A DNA stretch of 35,940 nucleotides from Bryobacteraceae bacterium. Lineage in GTDB: Bacteria > Acidobacteriota > Terriglobia > Bryobacterales > Bryobacteraceae. Within the stretch, counting starts at the first letter, position 1. Every line of letters begins with the position of its first letter. The notes beneath the pieces are model-generated. The model was not told the origin of the DNA and did not search any database. It was given only the letters and a program-made list of their open reading frames with translations. The position numbers and the translations under genes are program-made. Positions 2,780 through 25,809 of this stretch are shown here, in pieces. Where the stretch lies: the NCBI GenBank assembly GCA_049590695.1, contig JBAWDI010000025.1:1-35940 (forward strand), in the 5' to 3' direction.

Positions 2780-3407
2780 CGGGTGGTACGGAGCCAGATG
2801 ATTCGAGAGCGTTTGTGTAAGTGCCCTAAGTTCAATTGGATACGTCTGTCTGGAAGGCCAGCATTGGACTGCGGAGGCACCCGACCGCCAGGAGAACGGA
2901 ACGAAGCCAAAAGACGCCGATTGACCGCTGGAGACGCCGGAATCCCGGAAACGAGCCGATTCGGCTGCTTCACCCGAGATGCGGAACAAAGCCAAATTCG
3001 GATCAGGATCACGGCGGATTCCCTCCTGTCCACAGTGTACAACGGTGGGGCAGAGTAAGAAACGTAAGTGATTGATTCCGCAGAGACAATGAATTGTCAC
3101 CCGGACAATGCGTCGCTACGTGCGATCACGACGACGCTTCTGTCGGGAACGGCGTCAAAACGGGTTCTTCTGCCCGACTTCCTGGGATCACGGGTCGCCC
3201 TTACGGTGGCCTCATCCTGGTGCGCGAGTCGGACAAACGATTAGGCTACGGCTCCCAGAGGGAACAACTGCAACTAGAAAACGCGAAGGAAGGCGACTTG
3301 GTGTATGCTGACTGGTAGCCGGGACCCCAGAAGGACATTCCGGGCAGTATGAGACCGCCGCCGACGGCTTGAAGATCACTCGTGCCCGTCAGCCAAGGAG
3401 GTGCTCG

Positions 3408-6161: not shown

Positions 6162-6225
6162 CAGCACGACACTGAGCCGCGCCTGGCAGCGGGCGTGCGC
6201 CACGGCCGGAATGGAGAGCGCCGCC

Positions 6226-9207
6226 TCAAAACGTCTGTCCTATCGAGAAGAAGTATTGAAAATGGCTCACGCCCTGCACCACGCATTGGCTGGCGGCGCC
6301 GGCGCAGGGGTTCACGCCCGCGTTGATCAGGTCCTGCAGGGTTCCTTTGAAGCCAAAGAAGTGCGGCGGATTAATGCTGTATGCCAAGTCGACGCGGATG
6401 GGGCCGACGGGCGTGCGGTAGCGGATTCCGAAGCCTACGGCGTGGACCATGTAATCGAAATCCTGAAGGTTGCGCTGGCGCACGCGGAAGGAAAGATCGC
6501 CGAGGCTGGAATAGGCGTTTCCGGCGTCGTGAAACAGGACGCCGCCGATATTGTCGCCGACCAGCGGGAAGCGCAGCTCGGTCTGGTTGAAGAAGACCGC
6601 CGTGCCCCCTAGCGGGAAGCCGGTCACCGGGTCGCGAGGTCCGGCCTGGTTTTCCGGGAAGCCGCGGTTTGAAGTGCCGCCGCCGCCGAAAAAGCGCTCC
6701 GGCAGGGGGATGGCTGCGAGCACGTCGCCGCTGTAGCGGAACGCGTAGATGTCGCCGAATTCCGTGCTGCGCGCCAGCACCAGCTTCTTGCCCAGGGGAT
6801 GGTAGGTCGCATTGCGCGCCAGAAAGCGCAGGAAGTCGCGCTGCGAACCGACGACGTGCTCGGCCAGCCCCACGTCCAGTGTGGTGTAGATGCCTTTATG
6901 CGGGTCCACGGGGTCGTCGCGGCGGTCCTGGATGAAGCCGCCGGCGATCAGGCCCAGACGCACCGGCTGCGAAAGAAGGGGGATCAGAAACGGGGTGATC
7001 TTGAGAGTTGCCTGGTCGACGCTGACCCGCCGGTAAGTGTAGCGATAGAACAAGGTGGTGGCTTTGGAGAAGCGCTGCGACAATTGCGCCGAGCCTTCCT
7101 CGCGCTTATAGGAAAAAGTGCGGATGTCGTTCTCATCTTCATAGAGGCCGGTGAACGAGACGTTGAAACGGTCCTGGCTGTGGAAGTGCGGCCAGGTGTA
7201 GGTGAGCAGGGCGCGGCGTTCCAGTGTGGAAATGCGGGTGCGCAGGCTGATGCTGTGGGCCAGGCCCCACAGGTTGGACCGGGTGAAATCGAGCGAGACG
7301 CGCGGGGAGAAGCCGGTCTGGCCGGCGGGCGCGTCGAGGCAGGTGGTGCAGCCGCCGATGCGGGTCAACTGCGCGCCCAGGCCCACCGCGAAAGAGTAGC
7401 GCCGCGCTTCTTCCAATTCATAGAGCACGTACTTGCGGCTGGTCTCGCCGTCGGGATTCTGGATGGCGGTATCGACGCGCGAAAAGACGCCGAGGTCGTA
7501 GAGGCGGCGCTGGGTTTCGGTGATCGCCGTGGGGGAAAGCGGGTCGCCGGGATTCAGATTGAGGTTTCGATAGACCAGGCCGGGGCGCGTGGTCTTGAGC
7601 GCGCCCTGGTTAACGATCACTTCCTTCACGGATTCCTCATTGCCTTCGCCGATGGTGAAACGCAGGTCCACCAGGTTCGGCTTCCCGGCCGGCTTGGAGC
7701 TCCACTCGAAGGTGGCATTGGGGAACCCGTTGTCGAAGTATTGCGCCAGGATGGTATCGCGGTCCACCGCCACGTTGAATTCGCTGAAAGGCTGGTCCTG
7801 GGTGCAGTTGAGCATTTTCAGGATGGCCGCCTGGTCCAAGCTCCGGATGCCCTCGACCTCCAGGTGATTGACGAAGTACTGCGGCCCTTCGTCGATGGTG
7901 AGAGAGACCGCCATATCGCCGGCCTGGCCGCGGTAGTTGTCCTCCAGCCGGTCGGTCACCCGCACGTCGCGAAAGCCGTTCGACTGGTACAGATTTACGA
8001 TGGAATCCTCATCGCGGCTGAGGAGGCTCTCGCTATAGCGCCCGTGCGGAAACTGGAGGAACGAGGCCTTCTGGAGGAACATGCGCTCGCGAATGGTTTC
8101 CGTGTCGAAGTACCGGTTGCCGCGGATTTCGATGGCTACCAGCTTGTGGCGCTCGCCGGTGGAGACCACGTAATCGATGGAGGACTTATCGTTGACGACG
8201 CCCTGCTCCTTGAACTCGACCTCGGCGTTGAAGTAGCCGTCCGACTGGAAATAATCGCGCAGGTTGCGTGCGCCTTCGACCAGCAGGTCGTGATCCACGG
8301 CGTGTTCCTCGAAGACCGGAACCAAGCGCCGCAGCTTTCTTTGGGAGACCTTGGCGCCGGTGGTGCGGACCTCGATGCGCGGCCCCGCCTCGATGTGGAT
8401 GGTGGGAAGGGCGCTGTTGGTCCCGGCGTCGTACTTGAGGGAATCCAGCGCGACCTTGGCTTCCAGGCGGTCCTCCTGGTCATACAGCGCGCGGACCCCA
8501 GCGATGCCCTCGATCACGCGCGTCTGGGTGACGGGCTTCCAGGTGTGGATGATCCAGCGGCGGAATTTGGTGGCGCCGGCGATCTTTCCAGGATCCATTT
8601 TCAACTCGCCGGTCAGAACAGGTGGAGCGAAATGCGCACGCTTCCCGCTGTCGACTTCGAAGCGGAGATTCACCTGCTGGTGGGCGCGGTCGTAATCCAA
8701 CTCCGGGTGGATGCCCCTCCCGTAAAGGCCGTTGCTTTCGAGCAGCCGTTGCTGGCCGGCCACGGCCTCCTGGAGTTTGGCATCGGTGTAAGGCTGGCCG
8801 AGATCGAGCCGCGTGGCGTTCTCCAGTTGCCCGGGATTCGGATTGGACAGGCTGCCCACCGCCGACACACTGCCGATGAACCAACTGTTCTTGGTGAGGA
8901 AGCGGACGATGACACCGTTCTGGTAGGGCTCGGCATCCACCTGGATATCGGCGTACCTTCCGGTGGCAAACAGCCGCTCGATGGAGTCGCGGACGGAGGC
9001 CATGCTGAGCGGCTGGTGGATTTTGAGCGGCAGGATTTCGTACAGCTCGGAGGGGTCCAAAGGCTGCTCGACCGGATCGAACTGAATGGTGAGCACTTCC
9101 TTGCCGTCATACTTCTGGTATTGCGCCAGGAGAGAGCAGGGCTGCGCAGCCGCCAGACAGACAACCAGGCAAGAAAAGTTGGCGAGCAGCGATCGCACCA
9201 AGTTCAT
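6226..9207 (-). CDS. bamA: Outer membrane protein assembly factor BamA (Omp85 family, multiple POTRA domains plus C-terminal beta-barrel)
   Basis: The 993-aa ORF has a signal peptide (MNLVRSLLANFSCLVVCLAAAQP). It contains repeated POTRA-like units such as VLTIQFDP..., IEIRGNRYF and VEGIRSLD. The C-terminal barrel carries RGFPENQAGPRD, a GGT..FFNQTELRFPL motif and a terminal aromatic residue (..IGQTF). Confidence 0.9.
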   Translation of the reverse strand: MNLVRSLLANFSCLVVCLAAAQPCSLLAQYQKYDGKEVLTIQFDPVEQPLDPSELYEILPLKIHQPLSMASVRDSIERLFATGRYADIQVDAEPYQNGVIVRFLTKNSWFIGSVSAVGSLSNPNPGQLENATRLDLGQPYTDAKLQEAVAGQQRLLESNGLYGRGIHPELDYDRAHQQVNLRFEVDSGKRAHFAPPVLTGELKMDPGKIAGATKFRRWIIHTWKPVTQTRVIEGIAGVRALYDQEDRLEAKVALDSLKYDAGTNSALPTIHIEAGPRIEVRTTGAKVSQRKLRRLVPVFEEHAVDHDLLVEGARNLRDYFQSDGYFNAEVEFKEQGVVNDKSSIDYVVSTGERHKLVAIEIRGNRYFDTETIRERMFLQKASFLQFPHGRYSESLLSRDEDSIVNLYQSNGFRDVRVTDRLEDNYRGQAGDMAVSLTIDEGPQYFVNHLEVEGIRSLDQAAILKMLNCTQDQPFSEFNVAVDRDTILAQYFDNGFPNATFEWSSKPAGKPNLVDLRFTIGEGNEESVKEVIVNQGALKTTRPGLVYRNLNLNPGDPLSPTAITETQRRLYDLGVFSRVDTAIQNPDGETSRKYVLYELEEARRYSFAVGLGAQLTRIGGCTTCLDAPAGQTGFSPRVSLDFTRSNLWGLAHSISLRTRISTLERRALLTYTWPHFHSQDRFNVSFTGLYEDENDIRTFSYKREEGSAQLSQRFSKATTLFYRYTYRRVSVDQATLKITPFLIPLLSQPVRLGLIAGGFIQDRRDDPVDPHKGIYTTLDVGLAEHVVGSQRDFLRFLARNATYHPLGKKLVLARSTEFGDIYAFRYSGDVLAAIPLPERFFGGGGTSNRGFPENQAGPRDPVTGFPLGGTAVFFNQTELRFPLVGDNIGGVLFHDAGNAYSSLGDLSFRVRQRNLQDFDYMVHAVGFGIRYRTPVGPIRVDLAYSINPPHFFGFKGTLQDLINAGVNPCAGAASQCVVQGVSHFQYFFSIGQTF

Positions 9208-9250: not shown

Positions 9251-10270
9251 ATGGACGCGGCAGAGCGCCAGCGCTATTCCCGGCAAATCCTGTTTCCAGG
9301 CATCGGGGAACGGGGACAGGAGGCCCTGCTGCGGTCGCACGCGGTGGTGGTGGGCTGCGGCGCGCTGGGGAGTTTTCACGTTGCGGCGCTGGCCCGGGCG
9401 GGGGTGGGCACGCTCACCATCGTCGATCGCGATTACGTGGAGCCGAGCAACCTGCATCGCCAGTGGCTGTTCGAGGAATCCGACGCCGCCGAGTCGCTTC
9501 CCAAGGCCGCGGCCGCCGAGCGGCATGTCGCGCGTATCAATTCCAGCGTTCACGCGCGCGGCGTGGTGGCGGACCTCACGCCCTCGAACGTGGCGGAGTT
9601 GCTGGGCGGCGCGGACCTCATTCTGGACGGCACCGACAACTTTGAAACGCGGTACCTGATCAACGATTTCGCCGTGAGCCGCGGCGTTCCGTGGATCTAC
9701 GGAGCGGCCGTGGGCAGTTACGGCCTGACCATGCCGGTGATTCCGGGACGCACAGCGTGCCTGCGCTGCGTCTATCCCGAACCGCCCGCGGGCGTCCAGC
9801 CAACGTGCGAGACCGCTGGAGTGTTGAACGCGATTATCTCGGCGGTGGCGTCGCTCCAGGTGGCGGATGCGCTGAAGATTCTCTCCGGCAATGCCGGCCT
9901 GGTGCGCGCGCGCCTCACCACGATTGACGTATGGGACGGAGACATCCGGCAGATCGAAGGCCCGCGGATGGACCCGGAATGCCCCGCGTGCGCCCGCCGC
10001 GAATTCCCCTACCTGGAAGAATCGCCCCGCCCGCCGGCGAGCCTGTGCGGCCGGAACGCGGTGCAGATCCACGAGCGCGAGCGGCCGATTGACCTGGCGG
10101 CATTGAAAGCGCGTCTGGAGCCGCTGGGCGAAGTCCGCGCCAACGAATTTGCGCTGAGGTTTTTGGTTGCGCCGTACGAGATGACGGTGTTCCCCGACGG
10201 CCGCGCGATCGTCAAGGGCACCAGCGACACCGGCGTGGCGCGGAGTTTGTACGCGCGGTATGTGGGGTGA
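9251..10270 (+). CDS. ThiF/MoeB/HesA-family E1-like adenylyltransferase
   Basis: It opens with RYSRQILFPGIGERGQEALLRSHAVVVGCGALGS, a Rossmann GxGxxG motif, followed by IVDRDYVEPSNLHRQ. Two CxxC pairs are present (CLRC and CPAC). The ATG at 9251 is preferred over the TTG at 9248. Confidence 0.85.
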   Translation: MDAAERQRYSRQILFPGIGERGQEALLRSHAVVVGCGALGSFHVAALARAGVGTLTIVDRDYVEPSNLHRQWLFEESDAAESLPKAAAAERHVARINSSVHARGVVADLTPSNVAELLGGADLILDGTDNFETRYLINDFAVSRGVPWIYGAAVGSYGLTMPVIPGRTACLRCVYPEPPAGVQPTCETAGVLNAIISAVASLQVADALKILSGNAGLVRARLTTIDVWDGDIRQIEGPRMDPECPACARREFPYLEESPRPPASLCGRNAVQIHERERPIDLAALKARLEPLGEVRANEFALRFLVAPYEMTVFPDGRAIVKGTSDTGVARSLYARYVG

Positions 10271-10279
10271 GTTGAGATT
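9937..10279 (+). repeat. Left copy of a ~340-bp direct repeat (3' end of the thiF-like gene), putative attL-side homology
   Basis: It aligns by hand, without indels, to 16757-17061 plus 17347-17393. I count about 28 substitutions over about 330 nt. Confidence 0.85.
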
Positions 10280-10480
10280 AATTTTCAATTGTGACGTACT
10301 GCGCAAACTGCTACCCTATAGCTTCCGGCAAGGGATCGCCGAAGGAATGCATGCGTCTGTAACCGACTGCAGGAGGCATTCCCGACCTGGTGCCCATCGC
10401 CAACCGGGAAGGCCGAATCCATCTGCGAGGAAGACGGTCGCCTTGAGTCGGGTACCAGCGAGGAACGGCACCTCGACCCT

Positions 10481-11827
10481 ATGATCACGTTTGTCCATCT
10501 CTCGGATATCCACTTCTCCCCGCGGGACGATCTTTCGCAGTTTGACCTCGACCGACAGATCCGACGGGCCTTGCTAGAAGATCTCGAACGCAGACCCGCC
10601 GATGGCGCCGGCTACGATGGACTGCTCATCACCGGCGACATCGCCTTCGCCGGGAAACATGAGGAGTACCAGCGCGCCCAGGTATGGCTTGATGAGGTCT
10701 TTACCAGGACTGGTGCGTCAGCGGCTAGTACTTATGTGGTTCCGGGCAATCACGACGTGGACCGGGCATACGTTGAGCCGGAGTTCCCTCTCTGGGACTC
10801 GCATGTTCGGCTGCGCGAGGCTGCTGACCCAGTTGTTTGGCGCGATATCATAGCGAAGCAACTCCAGCGCGATCCACTGCACACTATGCTTGCCCCACTC
10901 AGGGGCTATAATGATTTCGCCCAGGGGTACGAGTGCCGAACAGAGCCAGGTAGGCTGGCGTGGTGGCGGACTTTTTGGAAAGCGCTTGACGACGGTCGGC
11001 CTGTTCGTCTGCACGGGCTGAATTCGGCGTTGGTTTCCGATGCGGCGGACGCTCCGGGCAAGTTGCTGGTATCCGAGTTTCAAACCTCGCATTTTGAACA
11101 TTCGGGTGGTGTCGTAGACGTGGTATTGTGCCATCATCCACCGGAGTGGCTTCTGGATAAAGGGGCGCTCCGCAACGCGCTACGGACTTTTGTCCCGGTG
11201 GTGCTATTCGGCCACGAACACAGCGCACGCATCGCCGCAGATGTGAAGCAGGTCCAGCTTTTTGCCGGAGCGGTTCAGCCCTCGCGACGCGATCCAGAAT
11301 GGCTGCCAACGTATCACATCGTGCAGCTTATCGTGGAGGGAGCCAATGCTCATCCCGAGTTGATCGTGCGGACGCACACCCGCGAATTTGACAAGCAGAA
11401 CTACCAGTTCCGCTCCCGGCGCAACGAGGACGACGAGCCAGTGGATATACGCCGCGTCAACATCCCGGCATGGACGCCGCCCGTCGCAAAGGCTATAATT
11501 CCCATAGTGGCTGGCCCTGCTTCTGAGTTTTGTTCCGCACCGGTGAACGACAAGCCGTCTTCCGAACCGCCGATGCCCACGCCAAAGGAAACCGCGCAGC
11601 GCGAATTGCTGGTCCAGTTCTTCCGTCTCAGGACCCCTGACCGCTATACTGCCGCCAACGAAGCGGGTTTGCTGCGCGATGGCGATGACGCGCTCAACCC
11701 CCAGACGATGTGGGCGGAGGTTTTTCGCCGTGCGACGGAAGAGCCGCACGGTCTTGCGAGGTTCTGGACCGCCGTCGCCTCCAGAACCCCAACGTTGAAG
11801 GATAGCCCGAATCCGTTTGTTACCTAA
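10481..11827 (+). CDS. Calcineurin-like metallophosphoesterase with a Pro/Ser-rich linker and C-terminal helical tail (candidate effector of the island operon)
   Basis: The ordered metallophosphoesterase motifs are LSDIHF (DxH), ITGDIAF (GD), VPGNHDV (GNHD), LCHHPPEW (H) and LFGHEHS (GHxH). A linker (PVNDKPSSEPPMPTPKE) precedes a tail of about 80 aa that looks helical. Confidence 0.85.
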   Translation: MITFVHLSDIHFSPRDDLSQFDLDRQIRRALLEDLERRPADGAGYDGLLITGDIAFAGKHEEYQRAQVWLDEVFTRTGASAASTYVVPGNHDVDRAYVEPEFPLWDSHVRLREAADPVVWRDIIAKQLQRDPLHTMLAPLRGYNDFAQGYECRTEPGRLAWWRTFWKALDDGRPVRLHGLNSALVSDAADAPGKLLVSEFQTSHFEHSGGVVDVVLCHHPPEWLLDKGALRNALRTFVPVVLFGHEHSARIAADVKQVQLFAGAVQPSRRDPEWLPTYHIVQLIVEGANAHPELIVRTHTREFDKQNYQFRSRRNEDDEPVDIRRVNIPAWTPPVAKAIIPIVAGPASEFCSAPVNDKPSSEPPMPTPKETAQRELLVQFFRLRTPDRYTAANEAGLLRDGDDALNPQTMWAEVFRRATEEPHGLARFWTAVASRTPTLKDSPNPFVT

Positions 11828-11833
11828 GAGATT

Positions 11834-12790
11834 ATGCACCCACACTTGATCGATTGGTTTCGTAACGTCAACATCCACTCAGATCCGATACTGGTTGAGC
11901 GCCGATGGCAGACGGCGGAGGAGTATTCGAGAGCACTCTCACGGTCGTCGATACCACGGTTGCTGCGCCTGTTCCTTTTTCCAAAACCAGAGACCACCGA
12001 GAACGCATGGTTTACCGACGGGTTGCTCACGTTGGATAAGGAGTTCCCCGTGGCAAACAACGCGGAACAATTGCGCCTTATGGCGGGTGTGGTAATGGTC
12101 ACTACGTTCGATGAAGGGTCGGCGGAGGGCTGCGCCTTCGCCCTTGGGTTGCGGGCCGCTGTCTTTCCCAAGAGATCTACGCTGCCAGCACAACCGGAAA
12201 TTCTTGCGGCGGCGGAAGCGTATCTGCAAGCCGAGGCTGAACGGCAACGACCCACGTACTTCGGCGACGCGCCTGAGAGCCGGCTAGCTGAACAGATCCG
12301 GCGACTAGCTGAGGAAACCGGGCTTCTGTGGTGGGTGATCAGCGAGTACAGCACTTCATTGAGACGCCGCACATCCGGGCTGACGGCACCGGCCTACGCG
12401 TTGATTGCGGCGGCAGAGGCTGCGGACCGCACGCAAATACTGCCGCCGCCGCCCTCCGCAGATGCACTACTCGCTCGCGTGCTCAAACCGTGCAAGAGCG
12501 GCCCGAAGAAGGCCCACACCCTGATCGATTTCTGGACCGCAGCCGATGCCGGCTGGCGGGCAGGGCTGCTGCGGAGCATCGATGCTTCCGAGGGCCGCGA
12601 TTTCGTGCCAATTATCACTGGGCTCGCCAAGTGCGAAGAGTTCGGCGAAGCGGTAGGCGCAGCGAGAGTGGTGCCGAAACTCTGCCCCGGCGTGAGCATT
12701 GAGCATCCTCTGTCGCCTGCGGAAGCCGCTCAGCAGCTCTACGTCGAGTTGATGTTTCTGAAGGCGCTGGGTGCCTTAGAGAAGAGCTGA
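11834..12790 (+). CDS. Hypothetical protein (318 aa) that looks all-helical from composition, second gene of the island operon
   Basis: It starts 6 nt after the upstream stop. Coding-like composition runs throughout. It is Ala/Leu/Glu-rich with no catalytic motif that I can recognise. Confidence 0.7.
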   Translation: MHPHLIDWFRNVNIHSDPILVERRWQTAEEYSRALSRSSIPRLLRLFLFPKPETTENAWFTDGLLTLDKEFPVANNAEQLRLMAGVVMVTTFDEGSAEGCAFALGLRAAVFPKRSTLPAQPEILAAAEAYLQAEAERQRPTYFGDAPESRLAEQIRRLAEETGLLWWVISEYSTSLRRRTSGLTAPAYALIAAAEAADRTQILPPPPSADALLARVLKPCKSGPKKAHTLIDFWTAADAGWRAGLLRSIDASEGRDFVPIITGLAKCEEFGEAVGAARVVPKLCPGVSIEHPLSPAEAAQQLYVELMFLKALGALEKS

Positions 12791-12795
12791 TCCCC

Positions 12796-13818
12796 ATGGC
12801 GCGCTGCAAGTTGAGGGATTGCACGATTGCGATAGACGGCCGGTGTTTAGAAGGCCGAGGGAACGAGTGTCCGAATCGTTTGGCTGATGAGTTTTCAGAC
12901 GCGACCGCAACCCAACTGGCCGATTCCTTCAGAGGTTCCGAATCGATGGCTCGCCAATATGCGCCAACTGAGGCGCTCTATTCGGGCCTTCCGCTGGAGA
13001 TCGCTGAAGCAAGGGAGCTTTCCGGACGTGCGCGGGCCATGGTCGTTTCACTGACGGGCATGTCGGAAAGTGGGAAAACCTCGCTTCTCGCACGCCTGCA
13101 TCAGATGTTCCAGACTGGCCCGGTTGGTGGGTACGACTTCGCCGGGAGCCGTACGCTGCCGCGCTTGGAGGAATTGAATTGGCTAGCGACCGTCGAGAGC
13201 GGGGTTGGAACACCGACCATGGAGAAATCATCGCGTCGATTTGACAACAGCTTTCTGCATTTCACGGTCCGGCGGCATCCCGATGGTGGTGATCCCGTAG
13301 ACGTACTGTTGAATGACATTTCGGGCGAGACCTATCCGGAGGCGATCACAGCAGAGAGTGTGTGCACGCAGCTCCTCTGCCTGCGGCGGGCAGACCATCT
13401 GGCCCTGGTTGTAGATGGCGAAGCGATTGCCGATCGCGACCGTCGGCACGACCACTGCGCAAAGGCGAAGAACTTTGTTCAGCGCGTCCTGCAGACAGGG
13501 CAGGCCGGCAACCAGACGGTAGTGCATCTCATCGTTTCAAAACTGGATGTGCTTAACAGGGAGGACCGTAAGACGGAGAACCTCGAAGCTACTGCAAGGC
13601 TTGAAACCGATTTTGTGGCCCAGTTTGAGCCTCGCGTGGCCAGGATTCACCTCTGGCGGCTGGCCGCGCGCCCGCTTGATGGCTCGATGCCAACCGAGGA
13701 AACCGTGGCCAAGCTTTTCGCAACATGGGTCGAAACCACTTATCGATACACGAATACTGATGCGCGCAGTCCCGCTTCAATTGAGCACGCCCGGGACTTC
13801 TGCCGCTTCGGTGCGTAG
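12796..13818 (+). CDS. P-loop GTPase-like protein 1 with an N-terminal Cys cluster
   Basis: G1/Walker A is GMSESGKTS, G3 is LLNDISGE (DxxG), and the G4-like motif is IVSKLD (an NKxD variant). The N-terminus reads CKLRDCTIAIDGRCLEGRGNECPN, with four Cys. It starts 5 nt after the upstream stop. Confidence 0.8.
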   Translation: MARCKLRDCTIAIDGRCLEGRGNECPNRLADEFSDATATQLADSFRGSESMARQYAPTEALYSGLPLEIAEARELSGRARAMVVSLTGMSESGKTSLLARLHQMFQTGPVGGYDFAGSRTLPRLEELNWLATVESGVGTPTMEKSSRRFDNSFLHFTVRRHPDGGDPVDVLLNDISGETYPEAITAESVCTQLLCLRRADHLALVVDGEAIADRDRRHDHCAKAKNFVQRVLQTGQAGNQTVVHLIVSKLDVLNREDRKTENLEATARLETDFVAQFEPRVARIHLWRLAARPLDGSMPTEETVAKLFATWVETTYRYTNTDARSPASIEHARDFCRFGA

Positions 13819-13832
13819 GCTGTAACTCGACT

Positions 13833-14675
13833 ATGGATGAGAACGAACACCAACTGCTCGTCGTCGGTTTGCCTGAAACAGGCAAGACGTCTTTTATTCA
13901 CGCGGTGGATGACCTACTGCAAAGTCCCCCAACACCCGAGGCTCTGCGCAGCTACGGGCTGGCTGGAGACCGAAGCTATCTTGAACGTGACAAGAGAAGT
14001 TTTCGCGCTGGCAAGAAGCTCGTGCACACCGAGCGTAGCCTTCAAGAGGCGGCGCCGGAACTGTGGTTTGAAGATCCCAGAACCGGGCGTAGAGGTCGGC
14101 TCTTTCTCCCTGATCTCAGAGGAGAGATTTTCCAAGACCAATGGACTGACCGGCGGTGGACGGAGTCCTTTCGCGATGATCTCGAGGCCATTAGCGGGGC
14201 GCTGGTCTTTGTGCGAGCCGACACCCCGGCGTCCAATCAAGAGCTGTTGGGACAGATGCTGGAATGGGCGCAGAAGAACGTCAAGCCAGCGCCATGGGAC
14301 CTAAAGAAAGCAAGCCCGCAGGTGCAGCTCGTAGACGTACTCCAGTTTATTGGTACGAAGGCAGAGATCTCGCGCCCGCTGAGGGTTGCGGTGTTGATTT
14401 CCGCGTGGGATACGGTAGGGAAACCGGGCAATCGCCAGCCCAAGGATCCCCGGGCGTTCCTAGCCAGGGAATGGCCGCTGCTGGACCAGTACCTCCGCTC
14501 CAACGCCGAGACCTTTGTCAGGAAGGTTTACGGCGTGAGTGCGCTCGGCGGGACGGAGGAGGAATTGAAGGAGCTGAGTAGGGTGCCTCCGCAGGATCGC
14601 GTGAACCTCGTCGAGGACACGCAATCATCCAAAGACCTGACCCGCCCGCTGCGGTGGTTGCTGAAGCTGGACTAA
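13833..14675 (+). CDS. P-loop GTPase-like protein 2
   Basis: G1/Walker A is GLPETGKTS, G3 is LPDLRGE (DxxG), and the G4-like motif is VLISAWD. It starts 14 nt after the upstream stop. It is clearly divergent from the preceding GTPase-like protein. Confidence 0.8.
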   Translation: MDENEHQLLVVGLPETGKTSFIHAVDDLLQSPPTPEALRSYGLAGDRSYLERDKRSFRAGKKLVHTERSLQEAAPELWFEDPRTGRRGRLFLPDLRGEIFQDQWTDRRWTESFRDDLEAISGALVFVRADTPASNQELLGQMLEWAQKNVKPAPWDLKKASPQVQLVDVLQFIGTKAEISRPLRVAVLISAWDTVGKPGNRQPKDPRAFLAREWPLLDQYLRSNAETFVRKVYGVSALGGTEEELKELSRVPPQDRVNLVEDTQSSKDLTRPLRWLLKLD

Positions 14676-14687
14676 CGCGTTCTCGAT

Positions 14688-16742
14688 ATGCGCGTCGCGT
14701 TCACATTCCATCAAGCACTCTTTGGCTACGACGGCGGTCACCATCTGCTGAGCGCTTCCCTGCAAATGCCTCCCGAAGTGCGGCATTTTCTGGCGGTGGC
14801 CACCGACCTTTCGGGCTCGGCACCTGCAGAGGGCTTCGACACCGCTTACACTGGGCTGCCGCTGGGCGAAACAAATTATTATGCACTCTTTTGCACCTGG
14901 CTTGCGCCAGAGATGCGACGCCCCGGCTGCGTGTGGAGCCATGTCTTGCTCATAGAGTTGGCAGACCTTGCGGAACTACCGGACCTCGGCGCACTTCGCC
15001 GCGCCTTTCGCCGGCCAGTCTCCCCGAATCTGGACGAGTATCGCACCAAGGTTAACTTCCAACCGCAAGGCGCAACACCACCAAGGCTTTCGAGCGCGGT
15101 GACGGCGGATGCGGGCAAGATGCTCGCAGGGCTCTACCTCGCCCCGAAACGGCCGATCGTGTTCCCGACGAACGCGTCGTCGAAGGCGGAGAGTTTGGTG
15201 TTTGCCTTGTGGTCCCAGCAGTGGCCACGATTGCGTCGGAACTTCCGCTTTTCCACCGGCTCCTTCGCAGACCGCGGTCGGAGTGGCGATTCTTTCGATT
15301 TGCAGGTGTCGCCCGAAGTGAACCGTCGAGCTTGGCAGCGCCAAGGTGAATACCTGCTCGTCGATAGCACAACCGCAACTGATGCTGCACTAACGGGTAA
15401 GGCGCCGTCTTGGATGTGCGCGGCACTTAATGACCTGCTTGCTCCGGACGTTGGCGGCTTCCGCTCATTTCTGTGCGCGTATGGAACCGATGTAAATGAT
15501 CCACGCAGCGCATTCGCCCGGTTGGCATTTGCCTACGACCGCGTGGTACTCCGCCCAAACAGCGATTGGATGGAAACGCTCCGTTCCGTTGGTGAGACGT
15601 TCTCGGACCCATCGGAGGCAATTCTTCTCAAGGAGTGGTTAGTGAGTCCTCGCGAGCTCCCCGAATCTGAGGAGGAGTTAAAGCGCAATTTGGCTACGAC
15701 TTCTTTCCTGCTGGATGCCGATGGCGCAAAGCCATACGCAGGGGCATCGCACGGGTTCTCCAGGCTCGCGCGAGGCCTCTGGCCAATGGGGGAAAAGCGG
15801 GTTCTTTCGATGTTGGCAGAGTTGGTTCGTCAGCAGGAACGACCGTGTGCATCCGCTTTCGCTGCAGCGGTGGCCAGCGCCGCCCAACCAAGTGATCTGA
15901 GGGTAATTTCGGAGGAGAGGCCAGAGCTGATACCCCTCTTCCTTCTGCATCGCCCGGAGCTCGCCTTCCACGTTGAAGCTTGGCGGCTGCCAGCGAACAC
16001 ACAATGGCGCATTCATGAGGTTCTCGACGGATTGTCACTAGATGCTAAGGACTGGGGAGAAATCATGGTTGCCATGCTCGTTGCTACGACGAGAATAGCC
16101 GTGCGTGACGTTGTGGAAAAGGCAGGCCCCTATGCGATCGAAGGTGCTTTCCGTTGGCTCGACAATAAGATTGCTCAAGAACGCCTCCCACCAGATCTCT
16201 GGCGGGAGGCTCTTGCGCCACCCGCTGCCGACCGCCTTCAGAATGCAGAATTGTCGTCGCCCGCGACTCTGGCCCTCTGCGCATGGTTTCTCCGACCTGA
16301 GGTCGCGCGCCAGGTACTCAGTGCGTCCCGTGAAGACGTGGTGCAATTGGCGCGGCAGCCCATTCAGGAGCTTCCGCCACCGCTACGTTTGTATACGGCG
16401 TTCTTGTTGGTCACACTCGGATTACGTGCCGGTGACCTTGGGGGCGCGGCACTCGTAGCGCGGGGATTTTTCCGTGTTCATGACGCGCTCGCATCTAACG
16501 ATTATTCTTCGGACTCGTGGCGGCTCCTGTGTCCAGAGCTGCCTTATCTGGGGCGCTGGAAGGAGTGGGACCGATGTGAAAAACTGCGGCGGGCCGTGCG
16601 AATGCGATTATCTCCTCACATAAAGCTGATATCCGAGATGTTGCTCGCAGCCGCAGTCAGCCCGGAACATCGCGAGATCGTTCGCCTAATTGGGGCGGGG
16701 TCTTCACCGCCGGCGAGCGATCTTGACGCCAGTCTGTTGTAG
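14688..16742 (+). CDS. Large hypothetical protein (684 aa), fifth gene of the island operon
   Basis: It starts 12 nt after the upstream stop and is an uninterrupted 684-codon ORF with coding-like composition. The N-terminal block reads FHQALFGYDGGHHLLSASLQ...RRPGCVWSHVLLI. I cannot assign any catalytic motif. Confidence 0.75.
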   Translation: MRVAFTFHQALFGYDGGHHLLSASLQMPPEVRHFLAVATDLSGSAPAEGFDTAYTGLPLGETNYYALFCTWLAPEMRRPGCVWSHVLLIELADLAELPDLGALRRAFRRPVSPNLDEYRTKVNFQPQGATPPRLSSAVTADAGKMLAGLYLAPKRPIVFPTNASSKAESLVFALWSQQWPRLRRNFRFSTGSFADRGRSGDSFDLQVSPEVNRRAWQRQGEYLLVDSTTATDAALTGKAPSWMCAALNDLLAPDVGGFRSFLCAYGTDVNDPRSAFARLAFAYDRVVLRPNSDWMETLRSVGETFSDPSEAILLKEWLVSPRELPESEEELKRNLATTSFLLDADGAKPYAGASHGFSRLARGLWPMGEKRVLSMLAELVRQQERPCASAFAAAVASAAQPSDLRVISEERPELIPLFLLHRPELAFHVEAWRLPANTQWRIHEVLDGLSLDAKDWGEIMVAMLVATTRIAVRDVVEKAGPYAIEGAFRWLDNKIAQERLPPDLWREALAPPAADRLQNAELSSPATLALCAWFLRPEVARQVLSASREDVVQLARQPIQELPPPLRLYTAFLLVTLGLRAGDLGGAALVARGFFRVHDALASNDYSSDSWRLLCPELPYLGRWKEWDRCEKLRRAVRMRLSPHIKLISEMLLAAAVSPEHREIVRLIGAGSSPPASDLDASLL

Positions 16743-16756
16743 GTGCACGGCCTCGC

Positions 16757-17393
16757 CGGAGGCATCCGGCAGATCGAAGGACCTGCGAGGGATTCGGAAT
16801 GTCCCACGTGCGCCCGCCGCGAGTTTCCCTACCTGGAAGAATCGCCCCGCCCGCCGGCCACCCTGTGCGGCCGGAACGCGGTACAGATCCACGAGCGCGA
16901 GCGCCCCATCGACCTGGCGGCGTTGAAAGCGCGTCTGGAGCCGCTGGGCGAAGTCCGCGCCAACGAATTCGCGCTGCGGTTCTTCGTGGCACCCTACGAG
17001 ATGACGGTGTTCCCCGATGGCCGCGCGATCGTCAAGGGGACCAGCGACACCGGCGTGGCGCGGGTGTGCGACATAAAAGTGACGTCCCCAGGTGAAGCTC
17101 CGCAGGAGCGAAAGACAGTAGCCCATGGCGCGAGCCGTGGGAGAATTGCGAAATCGACCTAGCCCCGGAGGGGGCGAAAGAACGTTCTTCCGCCCCCTGC
17201 GGGGCTACCCCGGTTGCTCACCAGTCCCATGGCTTGCGCCATGGGCTACTGTCTTTCGCCCTGACGGGCTTTGAGTACCGGCTACGCCTAGATTCCTGCG
17301 ATCCGCTGCGGAATCGGAGAATCCGCCACTTTTATGTCGCACACCCGCGTGGCGCGGAGTTTGTACGCACGGTATGTGGGGTGAGGTAAGATT
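16757..17393 (+). pseudogene. Displaced 3' fragment of a thiF-like gene (right copy of the direct repeat), interrupted by a MITE
   Basis: It encodes ..GIRQIEGPARDSECPTCARREFPYLEESPRPPATLCGRNAVQIHERERPIDLAALKARLEPLGEVRANEFALRFFVAPYEMTVFPDGRAIVKGTSDTGVAR. The MITE follows, then SLYARYVG-stop. It has no N-terminal two-thirds and no start context. The track ORF 16743-17162 is read-through of this fragment into the MITE. Confidence 0.85.
17062..17346. mobile_element. MITE-like non-autonomous element (~285 bp) with 20-bp perfect terminal inverted repeats and a 9-11 bp target-site duplication
   Basis: The left TIR is GGGTGTGCGACATAAAAGTG (17062-17081). The right TIR is CACTTTTATGTCGCACACCC (17327-17346). 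The flanking duplication is GCGTGGCGC(GG), at 17053-17061/63 and 17347-17355/57. The uninterrupted left repeat copy carries that sequence only once. An internal perfect 24-bp inverted repeat lies at 17108-17131 and 17236-17259, with a central imperfect hairpin at 17163-17204. The element has no coding capacity. Confidence 0.85.
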
Positions 17394-17398
17394 CAGGT

Positions 17399-17605
17399 AT
17401 GAAGCTTCTCGTCACCCTGGACCCGGATGAGACCGGCATGATTGTCGCCGAGTGTCCAGCCATCCCGGGGTGCGTTTCGCAAGGGCGGACGGAACTCGAG
17501 GCCCTGGAGAACATCCGGGAAGCGATCATCGGTTGTCTCGAAGCGCGGTTGGCCAATAATATGCCTCTGACGGTCGCAGTCCGCGAGGTCGAGGTTCCCG
17601 TCTGA
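17399..17605 (+). CDS. hicB: HicB-family antitoxin (UPF0150 fold)
   Basis: The 68-aa product reads ..DPDETGMIVAECPAIPGCVSQGRTELEALENIREAI.., which is typical of the HicB N-terminal domain. Its stop overlaps the hicA start by 1 nt (TGATG). Confidence 0.8.
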   Translation: MKLLVTLDPDETGMIVAECPAIPGCVSQGRTELEALENIREAIIGCLEARLANNMPLTVAVREVEVPV

Positions 17606-17826
17606 TGGCGGCGCTGCCCTCCGTTTCCGGAGAGCAAGCTGTCCGAGCATTTCAAAAGGCAGGGTGGGGCAAAGACCGGCAGCACGGGAGCCACGTCATC
17701 CTGATCAAGCCGGGGCATCCGGCGAGTTTGTCCATACCCCAACATCGTGAAGTGGCTCCCGGCACGCTGCGATCTTTGATACGGGCCTCGGGAATGACTG
17801 TCGCGCAATTCGTGGAGCTGCTCTGA
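17605..17826 (+). CDS. hicA: HicA-family mRNA interferase toxin
   Basis: The 73-aa product contains GEQAVRAFQKAGWGKDRQHGSHVILIKPG, a YcfA/HicA motif with the conserved GSH histidine. Confidence 0.8.
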   Translation: MAALPSVSGEQAVRAFQKAGWGKDRQHGSHVILIKPGHPASLSIPQHREVAPGTLRSLIRASGMTVAQFVELL

Positions 17827-17874: not shown

Positions 17875-18711
17875 CTATCTTCGCCACGCCGCGATGTGCA
17901 GGCCGGGCGGAAGCTGGGCGTGGGATACGTCCAAGTCGTCCTTGGTTAGCGGGATGCTTGCCTCCACCGTGTTGGGGGCGTCCGGGTAGTTGTGGCTGAA
18001 GGCGATCTTGAGACGGCGCGCGGGGGTTTCAATGAAGGCGACCTGCTGCGTCTCGTCCGCAAAGGAACGCATCTGCCGCGCCTCCGCCGGCTGGTCGTGG
18101 GTGATGAGGGCTTCGCGCAGGACGCGATCTTCCGCGGCGTAGACCAGCACGGCCACCACGTGTGGGTCTTTGAGGCGCGCGTCGGGGGTGTCGTCGGCCG
18201 GCACGTCCAGACCGGCGTATCTGGGGGTGCCGTCGGCCCTCGATACCTGGAAGCGGACCAGCTCCACATGCGTGTCGAAGAGATGGCGGCCGTCGCCCAG
18301 GCGGTAAATGGACCACATCGGCACGTCGACGTAGCCGCGATCGATCACCCAGAGGCAATTGTCGAGGGTGCGAGCGGAATCGGCTGGGAGCTTCACAGAG
18401 TAGAGAGGCTTCTGCTTCGGATCGGCGCCCAGCGGCCACGCTTCCAGCGTCAAGGCGCCCGGCTCGGGTATGTCGCCGACGAAGTCTTTCGCGTGCGTGG
18501 TGGTGCGCAGCAGGAGGCGCTCATCGGCGGGGCGGCCGGGTACGCCGGTTCCGGTGTATTGCCAGGCTACGTTATGGATCTCCACGGTTTCGCCCTCGGC
18601 TGCGACGGTATAGGAAACAGTGGAGGCGGATTGCGCCTGAAAGGGGATCTTGGCCAGGGCCAGCAGCAGCGAGGCGCAGACCGCGGCGGCGGGCAGCAGT
18701 TTCTTCAACAT
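17875..18711 (-). CDS. Secreted hypothetical protein
   Basis: The track ORF runs to 19068, but its N-terminal 110 aa are Arg/Phe-rich junk. The ATG at 18711 gives MLKKLLPAAAVCASLLLALAKIPFQAQS, a signal peptide. An alternative ATG lies at 18738. Confidence 0.65.
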   Translation of the reverse strand: MLKKLLPAAAVCASLLLALAKIPFQAQSASTVSYTVAAEGETVEIHNVAWQYTGTGVPGRPADERLLLRTTTHAKDFVGDIPEPGALTLEAWPLGADPKQKPLYSVKLPADSARTLDNCLWVIDRGYVDVPMWSIYRLGDGRHLFDTHVELVRFQVSRADGTPRYAGLDVPADDTPDARLKDPHVVAVLVYAAEDRVLREALITHDQPAEARQMRSFADETQQVAFIETPARRLKIAFSHNYPDAPNTVEASIPLTKDDLDVSHAQLPPGLHIAAWRR

Positions 18712-19003
18712 GCTCCCAGGGTCGCACGTCGCGCTCATGAGCGAAGTGCCTCCGCGTTGAAAACGGAAGCGTGTTTTTCGACGCGGAGCCGCTGAGACGC
18801 GGAGAAAAAAGCAGAGAGGAAGAAAGAAGAATAGAGTCAAAACCTGAGAGCGCAGTCTTCGAGCAAATGGAACGTTGTCAAAAGGCCTCGCTGCGCCAGC
18901 CTCCATTATCTCCGCTTCCTCCGCGGCTCCGCGTCGAAAGAAGATGCCGGGTCGCGGAGCGAAGCGCCGCGACAAAAACGGGCAAGCTAAAGCATGCCCC
19001 ACC

Positions 19004-21145
19004 TCACTGCCGCTCGAGTTCATCGAGAAGCATCGACAGGCGCGGCGCCACTTCGGTGCGGCGGCCAAAACGCAGAGCGTTGTACTTGCCGGTGAACTCC
19101 GTCACGGCTGTCCCCAGTTGGCCGGGCGGCAGCGATTCGGAGAACTCCGCGGGCGTGAACCACGCGGGCTTCTGGTAACCGCGGCGTTTCAACAGGTCGA
19201 GCATGCGCTCGTACAGCAGGGTGGCGTCCGCCACCGTGTCCTGGCCGCGGCGGACGCGCTCCACGCGGCTGCGGATGCGCAGCAGGCGAACCAGCCGCGG
19301 CCCGAGCACCCAGATGGCGACTCCCAGCGCCAGCACAATCGGGATGCCTGGGCCATAGCGCCGGAACCACGCCGCCGCGCGGAGACGCCAATTCCAGTCC
19401 AGTCCGGAAAGGGAGTCGAACCAACGGATGCCCATGCTGCGCGCACCCTGTTCCAAGCGGTCGGCCAGCGTGCCCTGCCGGCTGATGTCGTAGCTTACCA
19501 CCCACTCCCGCCAGAAGGTCCCGGCGGCATCCAGGTACAACCCGAGTTGCGACAGCAGGGCGAAGCTACGGCGGTTGGGATCGGGCGGCGTGGGATCGAA
19601 GGTGGTCCAACCACGGCCGGGAATCCAGGCCTCCACCCAGGCGTGCGCGTCGGAGGCGCGCACCAGCCAGAAATCCGTGATGGGGTTGTACACGCCGCTT
19701 TGGAAGCCCGTGGCGAGGCGCGCGGGGATGCCGGCAGTCCGGAGCATCACCGTCATGGCGGAGGCGAAGTATTCGCAGTGGCCCCGCTTGCGCGTGAAGA
19801 GGAAGTAAGCCAGCGGATCGGCGACTTCATGGTCCGGAAGTTCGAGCGTATAGCCGTAATCGGCGCGCAGCCGGCGCTCGATGGCGCGCGCCCGCTCCAG
19901 GTCCGTCGCCGGGCCCATGGGGCACCCCGCCGTCATGGCGCGCGCCAGCTCGGGAATGCGCGGGTCGAGCGGCGGCAGTTGCAGATAATCGCTTCGCGCC
20001 CGGAGCGGCAGAATGGGCTCGGGGTACGGGGCCGGCGAAGTCTCCGGCGGATCTTCGAGCCGGCTGTAGGCGTCGTAGTGGACGCCCTGGGGCGACTGGT
20101 ACCCGAGCCGGTAATTTCCGGTCGCCGTCCGCAAGAGAAATGGATAGCGCAGGTCCACCATCTCGGGCACCCCGGCGAAAAAGAGCGCGTCGGTGCCGAA
20201 AGCGTCCAGATCGACGTGGTAGTTGATGTGCCGCCCCGGCCGGCGGCCGGCGGCCGGCTCCAGGTTGGCGTGGCCGTTTTCCACCGGGATCGCCTGGTAC
20301 GCCCGGCCGGGCTCGGACCACCGCTTCCCATCGAATTCGGCGAGCGCCCGGCCACGCCATTTCAGGCCGCCAGGCGTTTCGCTGCTGAAGATGCGGATGT
20401 GCATGACCGGCCGGGAGGCGGTGCGGATCTCGCCGAACTCGCCGAGCGTCACCTCGCTCGAGAAACCGGGAAGATAGAAACGATGCGAGATCAGGCGGGA
20501 GAACGCCGCCTCGGCGGTGCGCGGCAGGAGAAAGAACAGCCCGGCGGCGATGGACAGGATTCCCAAAGTCATCAATGCCGAATGTAGCGCCAGGCGGGGG
20601 TAGAAGCGCTTCAGCCCGCTGCGCGCCGTGACCGCGGCCTGGCGCGTGGAGCGGCGAATCTCTCCGCTGGTGAGCGCCGCTATGGCACACAGCAGGTAGA
20701 GCGCCAGAAACAGGAAGAAGTTGACATCGATGGACAGGAGGGCGGCAGCCAAAAGCTCCACAAAGGCAATGGCGGCGGTGTAAAGATAATCCCGATTGGT
20801 TTTCGCCGTGAGGATTTTCATCACAGCCAGGAAAAACACCAGGTGGACAGTGGCGGTGAGAAACTCCCGCGAAAGGAGGAAATAATCGAGCGCGAAGAAG
20901 CCGGTATAGCCGAGGGTGACGATGGTTACGGTGCGATCGGACAGGTCCAGCCGCACGAACCCGCGGATGACCAGGCCGCGAAGCACCAGGCCGGCGGCGG
21001 TGAGCGCGATGGTCGCGGTATCCAGGTACCCCGAGCCGGCCACCGCGAGATATCCGCTGGCCACCAGGCCCAGCAGCGAAAACTGGAAAAAACGCTCGAC
21101 GGAGGGGCGCCCTCTGGGCCACGCGCTCGCATGCGAACGCAGCAT
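19004..21145 (-). CDS. Transglutaminase-domain membrane protein (TgpA-like, DUF3488 N-terminal region plus transglutaminase core)
   Basis: The N-terminal half has multiple transmembrane segments. The core reads RKRGHCEYFASAMTVMLRTAGIPARLATGF...SDAHAWVEAWIPGRGWTTFDPTP, supplying the Cys-His-Asp transglutaminase motif. Confidence 0.85.
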   Translation of the reverse strand: MLRSHASAWPRGRPSVERFFQFSLLGLVASGYLAVAGSGYLDTATIALTAAGLVLRGLVIRGFVRLDLSDRTVTIVTLGYTGFFALDYFLLSREFLTATVHLVFFLAVMKILTAKTNRDYLYTAAIAFVELLAAALLSIDVNFFLFLALYLLCAIAALTSGEIRRSTRQAAVTARSGLKRFYPRLALHSALMTLGILSIAAGLFFLLPRTAEAAFSRLISHRFYLPGFSSEVTLGEFGEIRTASRPVMHIRIFSSETPGGLKWRGRALAEFDGKRWSEPGRAYQAIPVENGHANLEPAAGRRPGRHINYHVDLDAFGTDALFFAGVPEMVDLRYPFLLRTATGNYRLGYQSPQGVHYDAYSRLEDPPETSPAPYPEPILPLRARSDYLQLPPLDPRIPELARAMTAGCPMGPATDLERARAIERRLRADYGYTLELPDHEVADPLAYFLFTRKRGHCEYFASAMTVMLRTAGIPARLATGFQSGVYNPITDFWLVRASDAHAWVEAWIPGRGWTTFDPTPPDPNRRSFALLSQLGLYLDAAGTFWREWVVSYDISRQGTLADRLEQGARSMGIRWFDSLSGLDWNWRLRAAAWFRRYGPGIPIVLALGVAIWVLGPRLVRLLRIRSRVERVRRGQDTVADATLLYERMLDLLKRRGYQKPAWFTPAEFSESLPPGQLGTAVTEFTGKYNALRFGRRTEVAPRLSMLLDELERQ

Positions 21146-24945: not shown

Positions 24946-25344
24946 ATGGCCCAGCTTCAGATCTGTTTGTCGGAATTCAAAACCACACCTGGCAATTCTT
25001 TGGGAATACTATCTTTCGGTAATATCCCCAAAGAATCATACCAGCTTTTACCTAAGAATAGGTTACCCCAAATTGGGGCTATTCATATGACGCGTTTGTG
25101 GGTAACGCGATTTGGTTACTTCAACAACAGCTTCTTACCACAATCCGGAAACGATGATAATAATCGGATCGGTTGGCATTTTCGCTGTAAACGACCGTTA
25201 GAAAAGCAGCGGTCCTTTTCAACCTCACATTACCTTACACATTTGCCAAGTAAGGAAGTGGTTGCGCCAAGCCGCTGACTCTAAAGGAAATTCAGTTCTT
25301 ATGTTTTAGTGAACGCCCGCAGTGGGGCGTCACCGGCGCGGCGA

Positions 25345-25809
25345 TCAACGGGGGTAGGAACCGGCGATCTTCTTCACCAAGCCGTGAAAACGATGGAACC
25401 ACGCCCCGCCGGGCAGGAACATCATGGGGCACTGGCCGGGAATCACCGAGATGCCGTTGGCTTCACAGAACTTCACGGCATCGGCGCTCACGGCTCCCTG
25501 GCCAGTGGCGCGGTACAACCATACCCGCTTGACGCCCGCTTCGGCGCAGTCGCGGACTACCCGGTCCGTAAGCGACGGCGGCGTCATCAGCAGAGCGCCG
25601 CCGACAGGAGGTTGGATCTCTTGCAGGCGGGCAAAGCACGGAAGTCCCTCCATCTCGCGGGCTTCCGGATTCACCGGCACGGGATCAAAGCCTTTCTGGC
25701 GAAACTCGCGCAGCAACGCTCTTGAGAAGTCCTTTGGCTGGCGCGAAACGCCCACGATGGCGAAGCGCTTCTGGCCCAGGAAGTCCTGTATGCGCTCCAT
25801 GACGGCCAT
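25345..25809 (-). CDS. CoA-binding domain protein (YccU-like)
   Basis: KRFAIVGVSRQPKDFSRALLREFRQKGFDPVPVNP is the typical opening of a CoA_binding_2 domain. The ATG at 25809 (or 25800) is preferred because the track N-terminal extension to 25914 looks non-coding. Confidence 0.8.
   Translation of the reverse strand: MAVMERIQDFLGQKRFAIVGVSRQPKDFSRALLREFRQKGFDPVPVNPEAREMEGLPCFARLQEIQPPVGGALLMTPPSLTDRVVRDCAEAGVKRVWLYRATGQGAVSADAVKFCEANGISVIPGQCPMMFLPGGAWFHRFHGLVKKIAGSYPR

Follow-up and report, generated by a model that had tools for sequence, protein, structure and literature searches.

Integrase-free insertion of a putative double-GTPase conflict operon at the 3' end of thiF in a Bryobacteraceae bacterium

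The window analysed here is a 36-kb stretch of DNA (35,940 nucleotides, contig JBAWDI010000025.1) from the metagenome-assembled genome of a Bryobacteraceae bacterium. It carries an operon of five genes that follows an adenylyltransferase gene of the thiF/moeB family and is bracketed by two copies of the 3' end of this gene. We found that this arrangement reflects a real and recent insertion at a small local hotspot, that the insertion was homology-driven and free of an integrase, and that its geometry is a variant of 3'-end displacement. As for the route, we lean, at slightly better than even confidence, toward an entry of this horizontally acquired operon by integrase-independent, homology-driven recombination, in which the thiF 3' end served as homology arm and a circular DNA molecule crossed over with the resident gene. 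For comparison, 196 loci were fetched, and these are referred to by their locus labels (L001-L118 etc.) where they have to be told apart.

The resident thiF gene (9251-10270, plus strand) is intact and encodes 339 amino acids (Pfam ThiF PF00899, E = 9.5e-73). A TTG at 9248 provides an alternative start, but in an exact-protein look-up the protein starting with the ATG at 9251 was matched, whereas the one starting with the TTG was without a match. The gene is divergently paired with BamA (6226-9207, minus strand). All of the best 80 genome matches of ThiF came from Acidobacteriota, mostly from Bryobacterales, and most of these loci have kept the BamA-thiF pair. Comparison of the window with itself yielded a direct repeat in two parts: 9937-10236 matches 16757-17056 (300 nucleotides, 91% identity) and 10227-10279 matches 17341-17393 (53 nucleotides, 92%). 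The left repeat (copy 1, 9937-10279, plus strand) consists of the terminal 334 nucleotides of thiF and 9 nucleotides past the stop codon. The right repeat (copy 2, 16757-17393, plus strand) is a displaced thiF 3' end, which is made up of 16757-17063 and 17358-17393 and is split by a miniature inverted-repeat transposable element (MITE). When the MITE and one copy of its target were deleted, the two copies aligned without gaps and were identical at 312 of 343 positions (91.0%), and the reading frame of copy 2 was open to the same thiF stop codon. A first-pass annotation of this DNA had described a repeat of the thiF 3' end plus 9 nucleotides with a five-gene operon exactly between the copies, and both statements are confirmed: gene 5 stops at 16742, which is 14 nucleotides before the repeat begins.

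On the left side, similarity to copy 2 and to the relatives stops at 10279. The island then begins with a non-coding segment (10280-10480, plus strand, GC content about 0.57) upstream of the operon, which probably carries the operon's own promoter. A consensus promoter scan gave no promoter-like match within 10280-10480, and the promoter and terminator scan of the island was not used because the counts were close to the shuffled expectation. On the right side, the 14 nucleotides between the stop codon of the last operon gene, GAP1, and the displaced thiF fragment (16743-16756) show no relation to the thiF sequence that precedes 9937 and constitute a non-homologous joint of inserted DNA. The GAP1 stop codon (TAG) is followed directly by an in-frame GTG and the displaced thiF sequence. 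This gives a 139-amino acid open reading frame (ORF; 16743-17162), which extends into the MITE and is listed as a gene in the source annotation. Next to copy 2, a toxin-antitoxin pair is located (17399-17826, plus strand; hicB 17399-17605, hicA 17605-17826; Pfam HicB_lk_antitox and HicA_toxin). Collinearity with the relatives returns in the right backbone (17875-21145, minus strand), which encodes a secreted 287-amino acid protein (17875-18738) and a TgpA-like transglutaminase (19004-21145) and is 88-94% identical at the nucleotide level to L086-L091, L113 and L118.

In close relatives (88-94% nucleotide identity), the site occurs in an empty state and with at least five other fillings. A truly empty site is present in L118 (92% nucleotide identity), where the thiF stop is followed by an 85-nucleotide spacer, the convergent secreted-protein gene and TgpA. 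This locus was the only new close relative among the matches listed in a metagenome scan with ThiF. The spacer (L118 1722-1808), which separates the convergent genes for thiF and the secreted protein, contains a perfect hairpin (TTTCGGTGACAGGCTAC...GTAGCCTGTCACCGAAA) and is probably a bidirectional terminator. In L086-L091 (90.7%), only one ORF of 93 amino acids is found 3' of thiF, and in L083 (90.7%; 93.3% for the thiF 5' part) about 70 nucleotides of a truncated hicB follow thiF and precede an unrelated gene. An AbiL/AAA_21/PtuA-like ATPase gene comes after thiF in L097 and a DUF3738 gene in L096, L098 and L099 (ThiF 96% identical at the amino acid level in both cases), while L113-L115 (about 90% nucleotide identity) carry genes for AbiGi, a trypsin-like protease and a 91-amino acid protein, followed by hicB. 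Among the other 195 fetched loci, the island was detected in none except the window's own contigs. These data substantiate the insertion that the first-pass annotation had proposed. It had suggested looking in related genomes for an empty site and for alternative cargo: the latter was found in several close relatives, and of the two empty arrangements it envisaged, thiF followed by the secreted-protein gene exists in L118, whereas thiF followed by hicBA was recovered only partly, as the truncated hicB of L083. A duplication and an operon common to all relatives, which would have pointed to an old fixed arrangement, were not seen; relatives share neither of the two. Its fallback reading of the cargo as a recombination-swapped module at a hotspot fits these observations.

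Six short-read contigs from different metagenomes (L084, L085, L092-L095) end 7 nucleotides past the thiF stop (...TGAGGCGGAG). Assemblers behave in this way at polymorphic junctions, and the shared breaks suggest that several variants of the site coexist in those communities. The hotspot is local to the clade in which ThiF is about 90% identical or more. An order-wide defence hotspot after thiF was also considered and rejected. In 66 species-level relatives, the first genes after thiF were diverse and ordinary (MFS transporters, epimerases, sulfatases and others) and lacked synteny, and PADLOC gave essentially no matches after thiF in these 66 relatives.

The cargo is compositionally foreign and was acquired horizontally. 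The GC content at third codon positions (GC3) was 0.62-0.68 for each of the island genes, 0.76-0.84 for backbone genes and 0.83-0.84 for both thiF 3' copies; the pooled values were 0.65 for the island vs 0.79 for the backbone. Thus, the by-eye impression of the first annotator that the island uses more A/T-ending codons was correct. The GC3 of the thiF copies (0.83-0.84) as compared with that of the island (0.65) indicates a close relative as the source of the arm and a more distant source for the cargo. When Pfam domains were searched in all plausible ORFs of the 36-kb window, no integrase, transposase or excisionase was found, and the precomputed Pfam annotation of the source contig contained no recombinase either. 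The lack of a recombinase in or beside the island, as noted before, can therefore be extended to the whole window. Phage or conjugation genes were also absent from the cargo. The sole transfer RNA (tRNA) gene of the window, tRNA-Gln at 30507, is 13 kb off. In IMG/VR, no viral contig contained a sequence closely related to this thiF 3' end, the sensitivity of this search being limited.

Copy 1 and copy 2 differ at 31 positions, which include 21 synonymous and 7 non-synonymous codon changes. The differences are distributed over the three codon positions as 4/4/21, the ratio of non-synonymous to synonymous substitution rates (dN/dS) was 0.11 and the synonymous rate (dS) was 0.30. This mostly synonymous divergence indicates that the copies diverged under purifying selection as working gene ends in separate lineages. 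For a block-wise comparison, L092, L096 and L097, the closest relatives, were used as reference backbone group, and the thiF 5' part of the window was 96.2% identical to this group. Over thiF nucleotides 687-874, copy 1 was 96.8% identical to the group and copy 2 91.0%, whereas over nucleotides 882-1020 the order was inverted, with 92.8% for copy 1 and 97.8% for copy 2. A recipient reconstructed from the first part of copy 1 and the last part of copy 2 was 97.3% identical to L092, and the converse donor reached 91.9%. The closest match of the reconstructed donor was L086 in both blocks. The alleles switch between 10102 and 10150, which places the putative reciprocal crossover in the interval 10103-10149 (copy 2 equivalent 16923-16969), and a maximum chi-square breakpoint test gave a permutation p = 0.011. 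We infer that this block switch was probably left by one reciprocal crossover with a circle of roughly 6.8 kb. A reading of copy 1 as wholly donor type, which had been based on its likeness to L083, was dropped; L083 resembles only the backbone-type first block.

In the route that we favour, a circle of ~6.8 kb would have carried the operon (6477-nucleotide island) together with 343 nucleotides from the thiF 3' end of a relative that had diverged by about 9%. A single reciprocal (Campbell-type) crossover between this circle and the resident thiF at about 10103-10149, presumably catalysed by the host recombination machinery, would then have produced a working hybrid thiF, the operon and a displaced hybrid thiF 3' fragment abutting hicBA. 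The MITE would have inserted later into the displaced fragment. Several points weigh against this scheme. Neither a circular form nor a donor genome nor an excision product was observed, and the nearest sampled relative of the cargo, at only 65% identity along the full length and 86% along a fragment, is too distant to show the donor arrangement. The scheme also does not account for the first origin of the circle joint at thiF nucleotide 687. Moreover, the breakpoint test uses 30 informative sites, one reference group and a handful of reference haplotypes. The thiF 3' haplotypes are mosaic in the population, L086 for instance switching type along the gene, and because of this mosaicism the block switch could partly reflect recombination in the reference lineages. 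Finally, in the literature searched, a computational paper from 2020 was the only one to treat the GAP1-N1 system, to which we assign the operon below, in any depth, and no experimental study of it was found. A more far-reaching version of the circle route is put forward tentatively, as possible rather than probable. Here, the operon would be a portable cassette: cargo flanked by diverged repeats would be looped out by host homologous recombination, and the resulting circle with one thiF 3' arm would re-insert by a single crossover in relatives sharing the core gene, which would regenerate the repeats. If this were true, the thiF site in the Bryobacteraceae clade would act as a natural system by which defence genes are exchanged as cassettes independently of a recombinase.

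The MITE-like element in copy 2 (17064-17346) is 283 nucleotides long, with terminal inverted repeats, a central 76-nucleotide palindrome and a target duplication of 9-11 bp. The terminal inverted repeats of 21-26 nucleotides (17059-17084 and 17324-17349) are 96% complementary. The duplicated target GCGTGGCGCGG is present as 11 bp at 17053-17063 and 17347-17357, but its true length is perhaps 9-11 bp, since the inverted repeats begin inside the duplication. Precise removal of the element gives back the thiF sequence, and this, the inverted ends and the target duplication agree with the earlier interpretation of the interruption as a MITE. The element landed after displacement of the thiF fragment, and since the displaced copy is otherwise undamaged, the insertion of the island is recent. 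A search for further copies, which covered the window and the other fetched loci, found none. Inside the element, we detected two matches to Acido-Lenti-1 (Rfam RF01687; 17096-17141 on the minus strand, 17226-17270 on the plus strand), which scored 41.8 and 36.6 bits (gathering score 37). These two inverted copies lie symmetrically around the central palindrome. Acido-Lenti-1 is a recurrent family in Rfam and is annotated as a small RNA motif; here, it is part of the arms of a mobile element and not a stand-alone RNA gene.

When ThiF was compared by tblastn with the 196 fetched loci, second thiF fragments were found in three lineages only. In L096, L098 and L099, the remnant follows the DUF3738 gene of 840 nucleotides and consists of thiF nucleotides 544-585 fused in frame to nucleotides about 893-1020. 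It is 85-88% identical to the resident thiF, with 11 synonymous and 2 non-synonymous codon differences. Behind this remnant (L096 9950-10106, also in L098 and L099), GC-rich hairpin repeats (GGGGCAGACCCCCTGGTCTGCGCGGGTCCCCCTGGACCCGC) are located, which may be another small repeat element. In L113-L115, the remnant follows the AbiGi-protease cargo, comprises thiF nucleotides about 882-1020 plus the stop and matches the resident copy at 91.5% identity. Its junction with hicB is that of the window (...GTGGGGTGAGGTAAGATTCAGGTATGAAGCTT...). The occurrence of the same remnant-hicB junction in L113-L115 and in the window indicates that thiF 3' end and hicBA are old native neighbours, and hicBA is thus the former neighbour of the native thiF 3' end in the window. 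The remnants of the three lineages start at thiF nucleotides 544, 687 (window) and about 882, and the cargos that left them measure 0.84, about 3 and 6.5 kb; none of them has an integrase. Different cargos have thus been placed to the left of the old thiF-3'-end/hicBA unit in separate events, each of which cut the old thiF end at another position.

Displacement of C-termini and 3' ends has been described for Rhs, CdiA and type VI secretion system (T6SS) effector-immunity loci (Jackson et al. 2009; Kirchberger et al. 2017, PMC5361080), and the orphan 3' ends of Rhs and T6SS systems were attributed to homology-facilitated illegitimate recombination (PMC5361080). The window locus shares with these systems a conserved upstream anchor, new downstream genes, an orphaned old 3' end and the lack of an integrase, as well as repeated events at one locus in related strains (L096/L098/L099, L113-L115 and the window). 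On the other hand, the anchor is the end of a conserved housekeeping gene and not a variable toxin tip, the cargo at this site consists of defence-type operons instead of toxin-immunity pairs, there is one remnant per locus at the thiF site, and the ancestry pattern is better explained by a circle that crossed over reciprocally than by an illegitimate join on one side.

Such a one-sided join would involve a linear donor that paired upstream of thiF nucleotide 687 and whose far end was joined illegitimately at nucleotide 687. Copy 1 would then be all donor and copy 2 all native. This route would explain the differing remnant starts (nucleotides 544, 687 and about 882) without special machinery, it is the mechanism proposed for the Rhs/T6SS orphan ends, and the overall identity ranking of copy 2 (L084/L092 > L086 > L083) is the same as for the thiF 5' part. 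However, the first block of copy 2 was 91.0% identical to the backbone group where about 96% would be expected, the first block of copy 1 reached 96.8%, and the ancestry switch is located inside the repeat (p = 0.011). A variant in which the one-sided join duplicated DNA of the recipient is excluded by the 10% difference between the two first blocks. The variant with an all-native copy 2 fits less well than the circle route; we consider it unlikely, but given the mosaic thiF 3' haplotypes of this population it still carries appreciable weight.

Phage 21 and e14 integrate into the 3' end of icd, carry a replacement 3' end and leave the native end displaced. The first-pass annotation had compared the island with these elements, and one could imagine the remnant of an element of this type with a replacement thiF 3' end, the integrase of which was later deleted or acted in trans. 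The geometry, with an intact gene carrying a substituted 3' end, the cargo and the displaced native end as direct repeat, is typical of such elements, and various cargos start 7-9 nucleotides past the thiF stop in several lineages. The substituted 3' end of icd differs mainly at synonymous sites, and this is also the case for the thiF copies. Nevertheless, the analogy is not supported. Neither the window nor the two other cargos that left remnants, one of them a single 840-nucleotide gene, contain a recombinase; integrase, excisionase and any phage gene are absent from the window locus, and the cargo is free of phage and conjugation genes. Furthermore, the remnant boundaries vary among the three events with their three different starts, the crossover signal lies in the middle of the homology and not at the 5' edge of the repeat, and no closely related thiF 3' end was found on any IMG/VR contig (at the limited sensitivity of that search). 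An icd-type origin is therefore improbable in our judgement, and the window locus resembles the C-terminal displacement of Rhs/T6SS loci more closely than the icd prophages.

A local tandem duplication of the thiF 3' end, between the copies of which the operon was inserted later, would agree with same-orientation direct repeats 6.8 kb apart and had been named in the first-pass annotation as a competing origin. It is very improbable, since the 9% difference between the copies is almost all synonymous (dN/dS 0.11) where a non-functional duplicate would change at all codon positions, the copies relate differently to different lineages, and no relative has a cargo-free duplicate. An assembly artefact, in which a chimeric contig joins strains with different thiF alleles, is barely credible, even if heterogeneity of the site in these communities and the ends of six short-read contigs 7 nucleotides past the thiF stop would agree with it: within one assembly, two contigs (L001/L106 and L107, 99.3% identity) span the island, the thiF fragment, the MITE and hicA, an independent contig from a metagenome-assembled genome (L002) has the left junction, the MITE target duplication inside copy 2 is clean, and comparable remnants are found in other samples that were assembled separately. 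ENA ERZ25039466:contig_8975 encodes an identical ThiF, as does a contig of GCA_049686475.1.

Defence hotspots that lie between core genes in E. coli, Vibrio and Pseudomonas swap their cargo via flanking homologous recombination. The window site, which extends from thiF to the secreted-protein and TgpA genes, is likewise empty or variably filled, and its fillings (DO-GTPase system, AbiGi plus protease, AbiL/AAA_21-type ATPase, HicBA) are all without mobility genes. Ordinary double-crossover replacement leaves no duplication. In contrast, three of the fillings described here keep a diverged 3' end of the flanking gene, which records the recombination route. Another difference is that the hotspot of the window is confined to a narrow clade.

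The operon consists of five genes, all on the plus strand. The first gene (10481-11827) encodes a calcineurin-like metallophosphoesterase effector (Pfam Metallophos, E = 5.9e-11, 43.6 bits), which has a probable GAAD adaptor domain at its C-terminus. GAAD scored 18.3-21.8 bits in this protein, below the cut-off of 23.6, and was found at the same C-terminal position in the orthologues of L100 (20.2 bits) and L103 (23.5 bits; same cut-off). The following genes code for a GTPase-associated system helical (GASH) protein (11834-12790; PF19994, E = 1.2e-10, 41.6 bits, cut-off 27), a DO-GTPase2 paralogue (12796-13818; PF19993, E = 4.5e-38, 131.6 bits), a DO-GTPase1 paralogue (13833-14675; PF19975, E = 3.1e-50, 171.4 bits) and, as last gene of the operon, a GAP1 protein with a GAP1-N1 domain (14688-16742; PF20012, E = 1.5e-28, 99.5 bits, cut-off 27). 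Four N-terminal cysteines of DO-GTPase2 (C4, C9, C17, C25) were judged zinc-ribbon-like by eye; a Pfam search gave no zinc-ribbon model that matched this N-terminus. GKT (P-loop) and DxxGE motifs can be seen in both GTPase translations and the metal-binding motifs of the phosphoesterase are also visible, so that the operon looks functional. PADLOC has no model for four of the five operon proteins.

A predicted GAP1-N1 GTPase-centric subsystem was described in a computational study (Kaur, Burroughs, Iyer & Aravind 2020 eLife, PMC7159879). It comprises GAP1, GASH, two DO-GTPases (one with a zinc ribbon) and an effector, most often a calcineurin-type phosphoesterase, which may carry a GAAD adaptor (PMC7159879). 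The component set of the window operon fits this description with all five Pfam families, and its domain content identifies it as an intact GAP1-N1-type double-GTPase conflict system, the family of which is already known. The published systems (PMC7159879) come mainly from Proteobacteria, Bacteroidetes and Spirochaetes, whereas the present one belongs to a soil acidobacterium (Bryobacterales/Solibacteraceae), and its GAP1 is at most 65% identical to any sampled full-length GAP1. The role of the operon is presumably anti-phage, and family membership and neighbourhood point to this putative defence function.

Among 221 GAP1 homologues, the nearest full-length one was 65% identical, and 86% identity was reached over a fragment. 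Homologous loci (57-62% GAP1 identity) have the same order of five genes and are neighboured by a DUF4011/AAA_11/AAA_12 helicase or by a module of ArdC, ParB and SNF2/MmeI-type restriction-modification. Distant homologues are located on 28 plasmids, 22 of which are conjugative. Phage records contained no GAP1 homologue, and viral contigs no close relative of DO-GTPase1. No flanking direct repeats were found around the homologous five-gene operons of L100 and L103, so that operons of this family do not generally carry a thiF arm.

Outside the island, other parts of the window also vary among relatives. A second variable segment (3097-6220) is located across the conserved BamA-thiF pair and carries a 930-amino acid beta-propeller gene (3369-6161) in the window. 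Its counterparts are oxidoreductase and HDAC-like genes in L084/L092, an AAA ATPase and two S8 peptidases in L086, and helix-turn-helix and pectate-lyase-like genes in L113; L109 is without this segment, and TamB abuts the neighbour gene of BamA. The region 24500-26000, with a GC content of ~0.56, may be another variable junction; collinearity with L086 stops there at 25292, before a CoA-binding-domain gene (25345-25914, minus strand). At 27410-27859, an isolated gene of the phage-lysozyme family (PF00959, E = 2e-36) precedes LemA and TPM-domain genes, and no other phage genes were seen nearby.

Taken together, the locus departs from known systems in that its anchor is a conserved housekeeping gene, in that both recombinant products are preserved and in that the ancestry pattern favours a circular intermediate. 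Because both crossover products, which stem from lineages about 9% apart, have survived together with empty and alternative sites, the route of a defence operon that has no mobility gene can be reconstructed base by base. The fact that the operon shares its site with AbiG-, AbiL- and HicBA-type cargo provides circumstantial support for a defence role of the GAP1-N1 double-GTPase system. A diverged, mostly synonymous duplicate of a core-gene 3' end downstream of accessory genes is a signature for which genomes can be scanned. If the circle-and-crossover route were general, it would help to explain how defence systems move among related soil bacteria at sites that are free of integrases.

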